A stretch of 64,000 bases of DNA, taken from positions 704,001-768,000 of the forward strand of contig OZ241855.1 in assembly GCA_965202785.1 (NCBI GenBank), read 5' to 3'. Shown here piece by piece: positions 58,600-63,481 of the stretch. Each line of letters begins with the position of its first letter. Position 1 is the first letter of the stretch. The position numbers were made by a program, and so were the translations under genes. The notes below the pieces were generated by a model that had not been told where the DNA came from, did no database searches, and saw only the letters and a list, made by a program, of their open reading frames with translations. This DNA comes from Thermodesulfobacteriota bacterium. GTDB taxonomy: Bacteria > Desulfobacterota_D > UBA1144 > Nemesobacterales > Nemesobacteraceae.

Positions 58600-59379
58600 A
58601 TGCTTGGAAATTTCATACGTGAACAACGGAAAAAGCGCCGTATTGGGCAGGGAGAGCTTGCTTCAGAACTCGGTGTATCTCGTGCCACTTACGTGCAGAT
58701 TGAGCTTGGAAAGCGTGAGCTTAAGGTAAGTGAAGCCAGAAAACTCGCTGAAGTTTTTGACATGTCTCTTGAGGATTTTCTTAATGAGGAAGAACAGCCG
58801 TCTCCAGATATTGAGATTAAAAAATCAGGGAAGAAAAAACCAGCTAAAAAACACAATATCCGTATCAGCGTTCCTCAGGAAAAAGCAGAGAAGTTCAAAC
58901 AGGTTCTTTTGTATGTTCTGGCTCAAATAGGTGCCCAACCAAATATAGGCCAGACAGTGCTCTATAAGATTCTCTATTTTATTGACTTTGATTACTATGA
59001 AAAATACGAGGAGCAACTAATCGGTGCGAAGTATATTAAAAATACTTATGGACCTAGCCCTGTAATGTTCGCCAAAATCATTGAAGAACTTGAGGAAGAA
59101 AACAAAATCAAAGAAGTAAAAGCCAAGTTCCACAACTATGACCAAGTGAAATACTTAGTCAATTCAAGGGAACTGGATCTATCGTCTCTTTCATCCAAAG
59201 AACTTGAACATATCAACTGGGAAATACGGAGGTTAGGCCATATGACTGCTACGCAAATCAGCGAATTGTCGCATCTTGATACTCCTTGGATTGCGGCCGA
59301 AGACAAGGAGCACCTTGAGTATGAACATGTGTTCTACCGTCCTGGACTGACTTCCGTCAGAGAATATGAAGAACTTTAA
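58600..59379 (+). CDS. XRE-HTH + Panacea (DUF4065/SocA-like) antitoxin
   Basis: N-terminal HTH; LYKILYFIDF, YGPSP, SELSH..PW. Confidence 0.85.
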   Translation: MLGNFIREQRKKRRIGQGELASELGVSRATYVQIELGKRELKVSEARKLAEVFDMSLEDFLNEEEQPSPDIEIKKSGKKKPAKKHNIRISVPQEKAEKFKQVLLYVLAQIGAQPNIGQTVLYKILYFIDFDYYEKYEEQLIGAKYIKNTYGPSPVMFAKIIEELEEENKIKEVKAKFHNYDQVKYLVNSRELDLSSLSSKELEHINWEIRRLGHMTATQISELSHLDTPWIAAEDKEHLEYEHVFYRPGLTSVREYEEL

Positions 59380-59713
59380 TTCCCTGCCTGAATTCAAGGG
59401 GGAATTAAAAAAACTCTCTAAAAAATACGGCACTCTTGACAGCGATTTAGAGACATTCAAACAGGTTCTTTCAAGTTCTCCTGGTGGTTTCGGAAAGAAT
59501 TTTGCAGTTATCCATTCAACTGAAGTTGTCAAAATAATAAAAGCGCGTATGGCGTGTCGCTCTCTTCGCAACAGATCTCTTCGAATTATTTACGCATATG
59601 TTGAACACGAAGAGAAGATTGAATTCATTGAAATCTATTACAAGGGAAATAAAAAAAACGAAGACTTTAGCAGGATTAAGGGCTACTTAAAATCAGTTGC
59701 CGGGCCTGATTAA
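59366..59713 (+). CDS. RelE/ParE-superfamily toxin (putative)
   Basis: Small basic protein, F..ELKKL.KKY, LRIIYAY, IEIYYK; overlaps antitoxin stop. Confidence 0.72.
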   Translation: MKNFNSLPEFKGELKKLSKKYGTLDSDLETFKQVLSSSPGGFGKNFAVIHSTEVVKIIKARMACRSLRNRSLRIIYAYVEHEEKIEFIEIYYKGNKKNEDFSRIKGYLKSVAGPD

Positions 59714-59809: not shown

Positions 59810-60754
59810 CTAGTAACTTTCCCCGAGCCCGTTTTTAGCCACGTAGCACGCTCCAAGCACCCCTGAGTCGTCTCCCAGAGCGGCTCTCTTTATCTGAAGT
59901 CCCCTCTCCATTCTCCCAAGACACCTTGTTTCGGCTTCCTCAAGCGTTTTCCCGATAAAAAGTTCCCATGCGCCTGAGAGCCCCCCGCCCACGACCACCG
60001 TTTTTACATCGAGAATGTTTACGAGAATTGATATTCCCACCCCCAAATTCGCCCCGAAGTCGTTCCATACCGATATGGCTGCTTGGTCTTTTTCGCGCGC
60101 GAGTTCCGCTAGGCTCTCGGGGAGGGCTGATTCTTCGGTTCCAGCAAGCCTTTCGCGGAGTTGCGGGTCCTCGCGGACGATTCTCCTTATCGCTACCTGC
60201 GAAACATAGGTTTCAATGCAGCCCCTCGCTCCGCAGGCGCAAAGGGGTCCTGACGGGTTAATCGTCATGTGCCCCAACTCTCCGGCGAAGCCGTTTTCCC
60301 CCGACCAGAGCTTGCCGTCGAGGATTATTCCGCCCCCGAATCCGGTTCCCAGGGTTATCATTACCATCGAGTTTGAGCCTCTACCCGCCCCCGCCCGGTA
60401 TTCTCCGAGAGCCGCGCAGGAAGCGTCGTTTTCTATAAAAACGGGGGTTGCGGTTCCGATTTTCTCCGAAAGGACTTCTGTAAACGGGAAATTCTTGGTG
60501 TTTGCTATGTTCGGGGCCTGGACGAGAGTACCGCTTGCGCGGTCAATGGTTCCCGGTATTCCTATCCCGATTGCGGATACCCCTTCCCCGGCTAATCCTT
60601 CTATTAAGCCAGCGAGGTTCTCCATGAGCCGGGAGATACCCATGTGGGCGTCCGAGAGGGTTTTTCTCTCCCCGAGGGTTTCCCCCTCCTCGGAGATAAT
60701 TTTTCCCCTGATGTTGGTCCCCCCTATGTCTATGCCAAGGAATTTCCGCTTCAT
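59810..60754 (-). CDS. ROK family sugar kinase (glucokinase-like)
   Basis: GIDIGGT, ENDA, GELGH, CACGARGCIE. Confidence 0.92.
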   Translation of the reverse strand: MKRKFLGIDIGGTNIRGKIISEEGETLGERKTLSDAHMGISRLMENLAGLIEGLAGEGVSAIGIGIPGTIDRASGTLVQAPNIANTKNFPFTEVLSEKIGTATPVFIENDASCAALGEYRAGAGRGSNSMVMITLGTGFGGGIILDGKLWSGENGFAGELGHMTINPSGPLCACGARGCIETYVSQVAIRRIVREDPQLRERLAGTEESALPESLAELAREKDQAAISVWNDFGANLGVGISILVNILDVKTVVVGGGLSGAWELFIGKTLEEAETRCLGRMERGLQIKRAALGDDSGVLGACYVAKNGLGESY

Positions 60755-60984
60755 TTTCCGTTATTAAGCTGTGAAAAACCGTCCAGAAAACTCTATTTTA
60801 CCCTGTCTTTTCAGAAAATATTGACTGCGGTGGCGGATGAAGACACCGGATTTTTGCGCAAGCCGCATGTAACAAGGTATAAATTTATCCTGATTAGCGG
60901 GCGTTTCGCGTCGTGTATTTTTCGGGATTTATGTATTTAAGTTGACGGATTAGATTCAAGCTGTAAACCGGGTATAATGCAGTG

Positions 60985-62178
60985 ATGATAAGAACTTACA
61001 AGTGCAGGGTGAAGCTGTCCAAGGCTGGTCATGAACGGTTGACCGAGATATTCGCGATGTCTGCGGAGCTGTACAACGCAGGCTTGGAATCCCGCATTGA
61101 CTGCTACAAAAAGACAGGAGAAAGCCGCAGTCTTTATGACCAGTACAAGGAACTTGTGCAGGTAAGAGCGGAGTTGCCGGAGTTTGAATCTATATCCAAT
61201 ATTGTGTTTCGTGGCGTACTCTCAAGGCTTGACAAGGCGTACAAATCGTTTTTTCGGAGGGTGAAGGCAAAGGAGAAAGCCGGATTCCCCCGTTTCAAGA
61301 GCCGGAAACGCTGGCGAACCATAGAGATAAATGACAGGGCATGGAGTATGCTCAAGCGTGAGGGGAACAAACTGATTCTAAAGGTCAAAGGGTTTCCTCG
61401 GATCGAGGTAAGGCCGTCGAGGGAGCTTCCCCCGAATGCCCTGCTCAAGGCGATTCGGATTACCAGAAAGCCTCTGCGGACGGAAGTGGCGTTATCGTAC
61501 GAATTGGCGACTCCCGAGGCAAAACCATTTACCAGCCCCGTTGGAATAGATATGGGCATATCGAAGCGCCTGACCTTGAGCGATGGGGGAACCGTGGAGA
61601 AGCGGGAGATAGACAGAAAGAAACTGATACGCCTTCAACGCTCCGCATCCCGCAAGGTGAAGGGAAGCAAAAACAGGCGTAAAGCGGTGCGTCTGCTCGC
61701 AAAGGAATGGCAGAGGGTATCGGACGGGGAGAGAGATTATCTTCACCGCCTGACCAGAGAGATAGTCAAGATGTACGACTTCATTGCGGTAGAGAAACTG
61801 AAGACAGAAAACATGCTTCGCGACGGGAATTTAGCAAAGAGTATTTCCGAGCAGACTTGGGGCAGTACCATTACGCTGCTTAACGAGAAGGCCGAGAGTG
61901 CTGGCGTTAAGATGGTGGCAGTGAACCCCGAGGGAACTTCGCAGGAATGTTCTGCCTGCGGAGCAACAGTAAAGAAAGACTTGAGCGTGCGTGTCCATAA
62001 ATGCGACTGTGGTTATGTCGCCGACAGGGACATAAACGCTGCAATTAATATCCTTCATCGAGGTATCTCGATTGCGGGCGGGAATGTTACCCGCATGGTC
62101 GGAAGGATTAAAGAGAAGTCAGAAGTTGTTCTGACTCGGCCAAGAACAGTGTACGAAAGTGTCAACTTAAATACATAA
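60985..62178 (+). CDS. tnpB: RNA-guided endonuclease TnpB (IS200/IS605 type)
   Basis: RTYKCRV, LYN, GFPRFKS; RuvC GIDMG / AVEKL / DRDINAAINI; Zn finger CSAC..CDC; TATAAT at 60973. Confidence 0.95.
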   Translation: MIRTYKCRVKLSKAGHERLTEIFAMSAELYNAGLESRIDCYKKTGESRSLYDQYKELVQVRAELPEFESISNIVFRGVLSRLDKAYKSFFRRVKAKEKAGFPRFKSRKRWRTIEINDRAWSMLKREGNKLILKVKGFPRIEVRPSRELPPNALLKAIRITRKPLRTEVALSYELATPEAKPFTSPVGIDMGISKRLTLSDGGTVEKREIDRKKLIRLQRSASRKVKGSKNRRKAVRLLAKEWQRVSDGERDYLHRLTREIVKMYDFIAVEKLKTENMLRDGNLAKSISEQTWGSTITLLNEKAESAGVKMVAVNPEGTSQECSACGATVKKDLSVRVHKCDCGYVADRDINAAINILHRGISIAGGNVTRMVGRIKEKSEVVLTRPRTVYESVNLNT

Positions 62179-62183
62179 TTCCC
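62057..62183 (+). ncRNA. Putative omega (re)RNA overlapping the tnpB 3' end
   Basis: Hairpins ATCGAG/CTCGAT (62057-62072), TGCGGG/CCCGCA (62073-62095), TGGTCG/CGGCCA enclosing AGTCAGAA/TTCTGACT (62096-62142), then GTCAA; boundaries uncertain. Confidence 0.6.
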
Positions 62184-62188
62184 TTTAG

Positions 62189-63481
62189 ATGAACCAAAGA
62201 ACCGCAGCTGTCCTGTCAGCCGTTTTCCTGCTCTTTTTCTACCTTTCCTGTGAAAGACCCCCGGAGATTCCGAGCCCCGAGTCCATGCGGGAGGTTCCCG
62301 CGTTCCCCGAGATGGACGACGACCTTTTCCCTGAGGGACTGAAGGAATCCATCGGCGCAAGCGTCGAGAAACTTTCGCAGAAAAAGGATTCCCAGCTTGT
62401 TTTCGGACAGAAAACCGTCTCCGCAGGGGACTACGCGCTCGCACTCGGTTATCTTCTCGCCAAGCTTGAAGCGGGCGTTACCAAGGATGATTTCATAAAG
62501 GACGTAAGGGAAAATTTCGATTTCTACGGCTTTCCGGGAAAACCCTGGGGCAAGGTTTTTATAACATCTTACTTTTCTCCGGTGCTTTCCGCTTCCCGAA
62601 CCAGGACACCGCAGCATACCCAGCCGCTATACGGGGTTCCCGCCGACCTGGTGCGCCTGAGGATAGACAGGTTCGTCGAGCGATTCGAGAGATTTTCGTT
62701 TCTTGAGGACGACAAGATCGCCCGGGGAAAGCTTCAGTCCCTTTACGGCAGAGTCGCCTCCGGAGGCCCTGGCAGGACGTCGGAGCTGGTTCCCTATTAT
62801 TCTCGAAGCGAGATAGACTCCGGGGGAAGGCTCAGGGGGAAAAGGCTTGAGATCGCGTGGGTAGACCCTGTTGATGCGTTTTTTCTTCAGGTTCAGGGCT
62901 CGGGTAAAATAAGGTTTGCGGACGGAGAAGAGCGGGTCGTGGGCTACGCCGCCCAGAACGGACACGATTACGTGGCGATAGGGAAATTTCTCTTCGAGTG
63001 GATTCCGAAGGAAAAAATGAGCCTTTGGGCCATAGAAAGCCACCTGAGATCCCTCTCCTACGCGGAGAGGATGAAGATTCTTTACAAAAACCCTAGTTAC
63101 ATTTTCTTCCGCGGACTTGCGGGCAAGCCGGAAACTTCTTTCGGAACGGAAGTCGTCGACGGCAGGACTGTAGCGACCGACAAGGCTTTTTTCCCCAGGG
63201 GGGCGCTGGCGTTCATGGAGTTTGAGAGACCGGTTTTCGAAACTCCCTCTTCAGTTGAGCCGTCGCAGTGGGAACCGGTTTCCCGCTTTGTCGTTAACCA
63301 CGACAGCGGCGGAGCCATAAAAGGGGCCCGGCGCGTCGACCTTTTCTGGGGGGAGGGAAAAGACGCCTCCCGGCACGCGGGTGTGATGAAAAACTGGGGA
63401 AAGTTCTTCTATCTGGTGCCGAAGGGGGAATTCCTGACGGTGCTTAGGGCAAAAAACGGCGGCCAGGGCCAAGGAGGATGA
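62189..63481 (+). CDS. mltA: Membrane-bound lytic transglycosylase MltA (lipoprotein)
   Basis: Lipobox LSC, FFLQVQGSG, NPSYIFF, DSGGAIKG..RVDLFWG (3D domain). Confidence 0.93.
   Translation: MNQRTAAVLSAVFLLFFYLSCERPPEIPSPESMREVPAFPEMDDDLFPEGLKESIGASVEKLSQKKDSQLVFGQKTVSAGDYALALGYLLAKLEAGVTKDDFIKDVRENFDFYGFPGKPWGKVFITSYFSPVLSASRTRTPQHTQPLYGVPADLVRLRIDRFVERFERFSFLEDDKIARGKLQSLYGRVASGGPGRTSELVPYYSRSEIDSGGRLRGKRLEIAWVDPVDAFFLQVQGSGKIRFADGEERVVGYAAQNGHDYVAIGKFLFEWIPKEKMSLWAIESHLRSLSYAERMKILYKNPSYIFFRGLAGKPETSFGTEVVDGRTVATDKAFFPRGALAFMEFERPVFETPSSVEPSQWEPVSRFVVNHDSGGAIKGARRVDLFWGEGKDASRHAGVMKNWGKFFYLVPKGEFLTVLRAKNGGQGQGG

Follow-up and report, generated by a model that had tools for sequence, protein, structure and literature searches.

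A non-autonomous IS1595-family element carrying tnpB, with a predicted omega-RNA scaffold that runs through its right terminal inverted repeat

TnpB is usually explained by the scarless excision of IS605 and IS607 elements. Here, we describe a tnpB gene in another setting, in a 64,000-nucleotide stretch of contig OZ241855.1 (assembly GCA_965202785.1, positions 704,001 to 768,000) of a Thermodesulfobacteriota bacterium, hereafter called the window. The gene is the sole cargo of a non-autonomous element of the IS1595 family, bounded by terminal inverted repeats (TIRs). It is probable, in our judgement, that the omega-RNA scaffold of this element extends through the right TIR and that the guide consists of the target-site duplication (TSD) and the right flank.

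The closest described systems each share part of this layout. Association with DDE transposases has been reported for six branches of TnpB, each of them in elements that have inverted terminal repeats, and solo tnpB genes flanked by the same ends as transposase-bearing copies imply mobilisation in trans (Altae-Tran et al. 2023, PNAS, PMC10691335). The window element resembles these branches in that TnpB lies inside inverted terminal repeats, with the tnpB 3′ end less than 250 bp from the element end (PMC10691335). It differs in its partner: the main text of that study names IS630 for one of the six branches and has no occurrence of IS1595, which its supplements may list. The flank G, the helix reaching into the TIR and the switching between TIR subgroups presented below belong to the window family and are not described in that text for the DDE-associated branches (PMC10691335). 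A 2026 review names ISL2, IS630 and IS1031 as DDE partners and questions the benefit of OMEGA systems to DDE elements (PMC13565253). Among the publications listed by our literature search, none evidently links TnpB to IS1595; here, too, supplements may list it. To judge from the main texts, TnpB in DDE elements with TIRs is already known, while the IS1595 partner, the TIR-tracking helix and the insertion-site G appear to be new details.

TIR-embedded scaffolds are known from Fanzors (Yoon et al. 2023, NAR, PMC10711439). Like the window unit, Fanzor1 and Fanzor2* are TnpB-type nucleases carried as the sole cargo of non-autonomous cut-and-paste elements, with the TIR within the guide-RNA scaffold and the guide taken from the flank (PMC10711439). 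The window case differs in being bacterial, with an ISDra2-like TnpB, and in that the variable 8-bp TSD is most likely guide, not scaffold; a pseudoknot-like pairing may be retained. ISDra2 TnpB itself (8h1j, 8bf8, 8exa) has in common with the window protein the RuvC triad, the zinc finger, a scaffold over the gene 3′ end and a guide that starts after the right end, the last two being predictions for the window. IS200/IS605 elements, as summarised in the review, lack TIRs and TSDs and are moved by Y1 TnpA in single-stranded form, and their fixed target of 4–5 nt equals the target-adjacent motif (TAM; PMC13565253), whereas the window family has TIRs, 8-bp TSDs, a DDE partner and a conserved flank motif of only 1–2 nt.

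The element spans positions 60924–62183 of the window (1260 bp) and has the following parts.
60924 to 60946, plus strand: left TIR of an IS1595-family element, from the repeat match, the boundaries of sister copies and the same TIR on IS1595-transposase elements.
60985 to 62178, plus strand: tnpB, 397 amino acids from a conserved ATG, from Pfam, the ISDra2 TnpB match and the open frame in sister copies.
62161 to 62183, plus strand: right TIR, predicted also to be the 3′ part of the RNA scaffold; it codes for the last six tnpB codons and the stop.

The arms of this 23-nt inverted repeat, GGGATTTATGTATTTAAGTTGAC on the left and GTCAACTTAAATACATAATTCCC on the right, are complementary at 22 of 23 positions (96%) and bracket one intact tnpB, whose stop codon TAA (62176–62178) lies inside the right arm. 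The details that the original prediction had read from the sequence are present as described: the left arm ends 3′ in TTGAC, and in the right arm GTCAA comes first and CTTAAATACATAATTCCC next, the latter agreeing with the left arm at 17 of 18 positions. The encoded protein carries OrfB_IS605 (PF01385, 2.6e-17) and Cas12f1-like_TNB (PF07282, 2.1e-21) domains. ISDra2 TnpB is its closest natural relative with a solved structure (chains 8h1j and 8bf8, E ~7e-36), a higher score being obtained only for the AI-designed nuclease 9yyg. The RuvC D/E/D motifs are intact, VGIDMGI, IAVEKL and ADRDINAA aligning to those of 8h1j, and we take the aligned catalytic residues to be D191, E278 and D361 of ISDra2 TnpB. 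The frame is open over 386–399 amino acids in 35 of 36 sister copies. The conserved start is ATG 60985 and not GTG 60982: instead of this GTG, 24 of the 36 copies have a non-start codon (GTA, GCA, GTC, ATC, ATA, GCC or GCG) before the ATG.

Of 24 genomes sampled from the same genus, 16 contain homologues of the window tnpB with 70–85% identity, frequently more than one per genome, and sister copies from 13 genomes (first 16, later 36) were aligned. Their similarity starts exactly at GGGAATTAT and stops exactly at AATTCCC, with unrelated sequence on either side. When 102 loci were examined, 40 of 64 distinct tnpB loci had an 8-bp TSD matching at 7–8 of 8 positions. In other tnpB subgroups, the inner TIR motif is TACAC or TAGAC instead of TTGAC. 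Seven copies were read in a genome of another genus, whose TnpB is 40% identical, and all have a TIR and a TSD, with G before the TSD in six and an ambiguous base in one. A metagenome-assembled genome titled Paracoccaceae (L165, 1279-2661) contains a tnpB 31% identical to that of the window, with a 27-nt inverted repeat, the TSD AAGTCATT matching at 8 of 8 positions and a G before it. The association of tnpB with IS1595 thus extends beyond the window's phylum, since the gene in L165 lies in the same TIR type with a perfect TSD. Separately, L010 and L036, which belong to different TIR subgroups and come from different genomes, have an identical right flank (GTACCTTTCTAAAA) and the atypical TIR end TTCCA; another repeat may have been their insertion site or the place of a recombination between them.

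The transposases that belong to these repeats were located through the TIR. A pattern search through 36 genomes of the genus found it in 24 of them, at 84 places altogether, and seven inverted pairs with longer spacing (2–5.6 kb; L022–L028) were fetched. Six of these (L022–L027) hold a gene for a transposase of 308–324 amino acids. Pfam assigned DDE_Tnp_IS1595 (1e-38 and 1e-42) and Zn_ribbon_IS1595 to two of the six, and all six were recovered with the L023 transposase as query, at 69–100% identity. Their 8-bp TSDs, read by eye from the listing, are perfect in five copies and have an extra G in L022. IS1595 members typically make 8-bp duplications (ISfinder). The same TIR is found on L022–L027 and at 19 transposase loci, and TTGAC and GTCAA are also present in transposase-bearing elements without tnpB. 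By eye, the tnpB subgroups with other TIRs have look-alikes on other IS1595 transposase subfamilies, such as L069, L067 and L071.

The window family shares with IS1595 insertion sequences the TIRs beginning with GGG, the A/T-rich 8-bp TSDs and the carriage of passenger genes, which in L022, L025, L026 and L028 are restriction-modification genes. The window unit differs from the autonomous elements, whose transposase combines DDE_Tnp_IS1595 with an N-terminal zinc ribbon, in having lost the transposase and carrying tnpB and the RNA. We conclude that it is a non-autonomous IS1595-family element with tnpB as its sole cargo, and that TTGAC is the inner part of the family TIR. Since many copies occupy different sites with different TSDs, mobilisation in trans by an IS1595 transposase is likely. 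Where an IS200/IS605 element would have no TIRs, no TSDs, subterminal hairpins and a fixed 4–5-nt insertion motif, we found TIRs and variable 8-bp TSDs. The genome contains a single Y1_Tnp match (31 bits, 939596-939856), which lies ~175 kb from the element and is unlinked to it, and the element has no IS605-type ends. In seven Firmicutes-type records with more distant TnpB relatives (36–38% identity), inspection of the alignment by eye found an IS605 layout, in some records with a Y1-type gene upstream, and 3′ ends that are conserved and mostly terminate in TCAC; their scaffolds are too divergent to align with that of the window and give no help in placing its end.

The window's genome is a single 1.64-Mb contig with only one close copy of the window tnpB. 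Elsewhere in it, another inverted pair of the 23-mer encloses unrelated cargo of 1.17 kb, and one copy is solitary. An IS605-type insertion into a palindromic, hairpin-like empty site was also considered. This reading was discarded, given that other cargo in this genome is flanked by the identical 23-mer, and the sister copies, in which the inverted repeat stands at unrelated sites with TSDs, rule it out as well.

Some further occurrences of the TIR and of tnpB are recorded here in their own right. The second inverted pair (L166, G000:C1:265712-266931, outside the window) encloses 1.17 kb with a weak DUF5678-like open reading frame (ORF; 108 amino acids) and an ORF for a retropepsin-type aspartyl protease (147 amino acids), and neither tnpB nor a transposase. 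The solitary TIR (G000:C1:1314126-1314148) has 1 mismatch to the TIR consensus and 2 to the window's left arm, and adjoins minus-strand sequence that by eye resembles tRNA genes. A distant tnpB-like frame (L002, G000:C1:1452090-1452947) is 28% identical to the window TnpB, and comparable distant copies are present in many relatives. L028 (G020:C1:1206099-1212706) is a TIR-bounded element of 5.4 kb with ResIII-helicase and N6_N4 methylase genes and no transposase. Its inner ends resemble those of the tnpB units, and its right inner end, similar to their 3′ scaffold, is possibly a tnpB 3′ remnant; this suggests an exchange of cargo within a tnpB vehicle.

The predicted RNA comprises the following features, all on the plus strand.
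62058 to 62183: predicted omega-RNA scaffold, from covariation in 36 right ends and fold energy.
62058-62063 with 62066-62071: helix H1, from RNAalifold.
62073-62078 with 62090-62095: helix H2, from RNAalifold.
62096-62101 with 62137-62142: helix H3, from RNAalifold.
62117-62122 with 62131-62136: helix H4, from RNAalifold.
62149-62153 with 62172-62176: helix H5, added to the RNAalifold set, with pair counts from the 36 right ends.
62080-62085 with 62178-62183: candidate pseudoknot, GGGAAT in the H2 loop with the terminal ATTCCC.

The hairpins over the tnpB 3′ end, to which the original prediction had drawn attention, exceed chance. The minimum-free-energy fold of 62049–62183 has −40 kcal/mol, compared with −30.2 ± 3.3 for 200 shuffled sequences (z = −2.95; one shuffle equal). 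RNAalifold on the 36 homologous right ends returned H1–H4 with compensatory changes; H5 and the pseudoknot were then added, and all pairs were counted. Standard pairs fill 95.8% of 1277 pair cells, vs 37–47% when the partners are slid by 1–3 columns, both sides have changed in 13 of 36 pairs, and the observed covariation score was reached by none of 500 shuffles; the aligned sequences are related, so these statistics overstate independence and the controls are indicative only. A search of Rfam gave no omega-RNA family match, returning two chance-level matches only (E 3 and 9.7). Taken with the domains and catalytic motifs of the protein, the covarying helices support the earlier assignment of the region as the 3′ omega-RNA scaffold of an intact TnpB.

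H5 bears most directly on where this scaffold ends. Its 3′ strand lies inside the right TIR, 8–12 nt from the TIR end, and at two of its pairs the bases change from one TIR subgroup to another without loss of pairing: pair 127:150 is GC in 17 sequences, AU in 16, CG in two and GU in one, and pair 128:149 is UA in 26, GC in seven, CG in two and UG in one, with no unpaired case in either. A position-based check of a wider set of loci agreed except in two rows (0 of 5 pairs), for which the TSD-guided right boundary had been shifted by one base. By eye, the clade with 40% identity, from another genus, has a helix at the H5 place in a different register. As a transposase site, the TIR changes at both ends, and when it does so the upstream RNA strand changes to match, for which pairing in a transcript is the only evident reason. 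The pseudoknot pairing is near-invariant, with one compensatory case (L043), and is also found in the distant 40%-identity clade. The reach of H5 into the TIR and the conservation boundary place the scaffold 3′ end, in all likelihood, at or very near 62183. The guide would then be the flank, which here is TTTAG and the first mltA codons.

If the guide begins there, the TAM would be expected on the other side of the insertion. The corresponding positions in the window are these.
62184 to 62203, plus strand: predicted guide, the first ~20 nt of host flank (5 nt and the first mltA codons), from the conservation boundary and the TAM-like flank base.
60914 to 60915, plus strand: TG directly 5′ of the left 8-mer (60916–60923, TATTTTTC), at a TAM-like position in the host flank.

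The 20-mer at 62184–62203 occurs once in the genome, at its own locus, after TTCCC. Of 39 independent insertions (TSD matching at ≥7 of 8 positions, one orthologous pair collapsed), 36 have a G directly 5′ of the left copy of the TSD (binomial p ~8e-19). The base before this position is T in 22 and G in 12, and the next base upstream is A in 16. The signal is one-sided, as only 9 of the 39 have a C at the mirror-image place beyond the right TSD. When the TSD filter was dropped, G was found in 45 of 52 copies with a recognisable left TIR, the window copy with its TG included. By comparison, G precedes only 5 of 19 transposase-proximal ends of autonomous IS1595 copies (Fisher p 5.5e-7); this control set comprised 30 loci minus five without a TIR call, five with doubtful calls and one duplicate site, and restoring the doubtful calls gave 7 of 24. 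Within the TSD, the most conserved position is T at position 6 (24 of 39), vs 36 of 39 for the G at −9. The G is specific to tnpB copies and stands on the tnpB-5′ side just outside the TSD, which is the place required of a TAM if the guide is TSD plus right flank. It therefore looks like the 3′ end of a short TAM, with a consensus of roughly A-T/G-G immediately 5′ of the TSD.

On this basis, we propose a probable mechanism. The unit, a non-autonomous IS1595-family element of the DDE, cut-and-paste type with only tnpB and the omega RNA as cargo, would be moved by IS1595 transposases that act in trans, recognise the common 23-nt TIRs and make 8-bp target duplications. The omega RNA would be transcribed from the tnpB 3′ end through the last base of the right TIR, and the TIR would thereby serve both as transposase site and as RNA scaffold. 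The guide would be the host DNA after the TIR, namely the TSD and the right flank (in the window, the beginning of mltA). Cleavage by TnpB would be directed at the empty allele that matches the guide, in which a short TAM ending in G precedes the guide sequence, and the occupied allele, with TTCCC at the TAM position, would be spared.

The site of the window copy can be compared with its empty form. The gene behind it is listed first.
62189 to 63481, plus strand: mltA, lytic murein transglycosylase A, from Pfam MltA (1.5e-40) and a 3D domain (1.8e-17).

The mltA ATG (62189) follows the TIR by 5 nt and the tnpB stop by 10 nt, and no Shine-Dalgarno-like motif precedes it. Empty-site contigs from three runs of related strains join 60923 to 62184 and so skip exactly the 1260-bp element; these element-free contigs indicate that the insertion is polymorphic. 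The empty alleles carry 18 extra letters at the joint, CTTTAGAGAACCAACAGG or variants ending in GGA. These letters, among them an AGG that lies 7 nt ahead of the ATG of mltA, are missing from the window allele, together with the right TSD copy. The 18 letters resemble the 16–18 nt that follow them, and the difference could be a repeat-unit polymorphism or a deletion beside the TIR. mltA may depend on read-through from the element or on coupling. For the annotation of this genome, mltA now follows a mobile element immediately, and the insertion would have cost the gene its native leader. On the other side, a terminator-like hairpin with a T run (60900–60923, GGCGTTTCGCGTC then GTGTATTTTT) abuts the left TIR exactly, and since the T run ends at the TIR, the left 8-mer is supplied by it.

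Several points weigh against the proposed arrangement. Excision by a DDE cut-and-paste transposase already leaves a break, which makes the benefit of a homing nuclease not obvious (PMC13565253), and the flank signal covers 1–2 bases, vs the 4–5-nt TAMs that the same review cites for IS200/IS605. Three of the 39 insertions (L010, L047 and L116) lack the flank G, and the first A/T bases of the TSD may also belong to the TAM, which would shift the beginning of the guide by 1–3 nt to a later position. Besides the relatedness of the aligned right ends, the RNA model includes the pseudoknot as a lead only, weakly suggested by its single compensatory change. At the window locus, the 8-mers at the two ends, TATTTTTC and TTTAGATG, agree at 3 of 8 positions, so this copy has no TSD, and its genome contains no intact IS1595 transposase, only an IS1595-domain fragment of 44 positions with an internal stop. 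One form of the empty allele has AGG before the would-be protospacer and two other forms have GGA, a mixed fit to the TAM motif. The single RNA run (0.06 share) has one contig at the locus, which represents the empty allele and is uninformative about transcription or RNA ends.

Other readings of the RNA have to be weighed against the proposed one. In the headline of the original prediction, the scaffold ended at GTCAA (62165), the guide was the fixed right inverted repeat, and the targets were junctions of TTGAC and the repeat, including fused or cargo-less ones, or the element's own left end. This reading draws on the resemblance of GTCAA and TTGAC to the end and target motifs of ISDra2 and on the match between the arms, but TTGAC is part of the IS1595 TIR in autonomous elements without tnpB and gives way to other motifs in other tnpB subgroups, and 62172–62176, which would lie in such a guide, are engaged in the covarying helix with 62149–62153. 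In the covariance alignment of homologous 3′ ends that had been suggested as a check, conservation continued through the CCC at 62183, with unrelated sequence right after it, which is the outcome that the original prediction itself had named as refuting the idea. No target of TTGAC followed by the repeat exists in the genome at ≤4 mismatches, nor, on our reading of the matches, did the 84 TIR matches from the 36 genomes include an overlapping plus/minus pair, as a fused TIR pair would be. A fixed-repeat guide would moreover match both ends of the element, each with the same 5′ neighbour GTCAAC, and aim an intact nuclease at its own element. We regard this headline as extremely improbable; the alternative offered beside it, a scaffold spanning the whole repeat with the mltA start as guide, is the reading favoured here, on the strength of conservation to the CCC and of H5 inside the TIR. 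A Fanzor1-like layout, in which TIR and TSD would both be scaffold, the guide would follow the 8-bp TSD and the TAM would fall within it, has a precedent, given that both are predicted scaffold parts in Fanzor1 and Fanzor2* and that the RNAs reach ~15 nt past the TSD (PMC10711439). However, the 8-bp TSD is present in occupied and empty alleles alike, so a TAM inside it would presumably not discriminate between them and the element would be cut, and no TSD position is as conserved as the G at −9. This layout is, in our view, quite unlikely.

Two further alternatives leave the RNA layout largely untouched. The flank G might reflect the target choice of the transposase, or selection on insertion orientation, rather than a TAM. 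Preferences for certain targets are common among DDE transposases, and tnpB and autonomous elements alike have A/T-rich TSDs, yet the G is infrequent beside autonomous elements that carry the same TIRs, the signal expected of a symmetric transposase complex is two-sided and not one-sided as observed, and the G falls on the side required of a TAM for a guide taken from the right flank. Such an origin of the G is unlikely, and the RNA layout may hold even so. Alternatively, the window copy could be a stranded or domesticated remnant that no longer acts on the empty site and mainly supplies transcription or translation signals to mltA. Its missing TSD, the absence of an intact IS1595 transposase from the genome, the presence of one close copy only, and the loss of the 18 empty-allele letters next to a tnpB stop 10 nt before the mltA ATG all fit this account, and the copy is probably stranded, given the first two of these points. 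On the other hand, the tnpB frame and catalytic motifs are intact and the scaffold helices are unbroken in this copy. We give the full remnant account only a small chance; it concerns the present state of the window copy and is compatible with the proposed arrangement at the level of the family.

A few features of the surroundings complete the description. The element stands between a gene for a ROK-family kinase (59810–60754, minus strand) and mltA. Upstream of tnpB, one promoter-like feature was recorded.
60973 to 60978, plus strand: TATAAT, a −10-like box 6 nt before the ATG, conserved where the 5′ parts of 16 copies were aligned.

A simple promoter scan does not have this box in its list. 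The possibility that the 23-mer acts as an UP element plus −35 box was rejected: it lies ~26 nt from the conserved TATAAT, and the same scan lists no such promoter. Further upstream, 58600–59713 encodes a 259-amino-acid protein with HTH_3 and SocA/Panacea antitoxin domains, and a 115-amino-acid ORF without a Pfam match overlaps its end; the two may be a toxin-antitoxin pair.

The layout proposed here replaces the idea of a self-matching guide with a prokaryotic counterpart of the Fanzor arrangement in TIR transposons. The census of insertions also yields a testable prediction with a named transposase family, in which the guide consists of the bases after CCC and a TAM ending in G precedes the TSD. 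With a compact scaffold (~125 nt) and a short TAM, the family may also interest those who mine TnpBs as small genome editors. For the biology of the family, we see an even chance that a TnpB lineage has settled permanently in IS1595-type transposons, with its scaffold re-tuned to each TIR and a resulting three-way co-variation of the two TIRs with the upstream RNA strand, and that the flank G is the footprint of TnpB-driven retention or homing. Non-autonomous copies would then persist only where the flank supplies a TAM, the first 8 nt of the guide would be the TSD, and the insertion sites would both reveal the TAM and provide direct genomic evidence for the OMEGA benefit to DDE transposons that the 2026 review doubted (PMC13565253).

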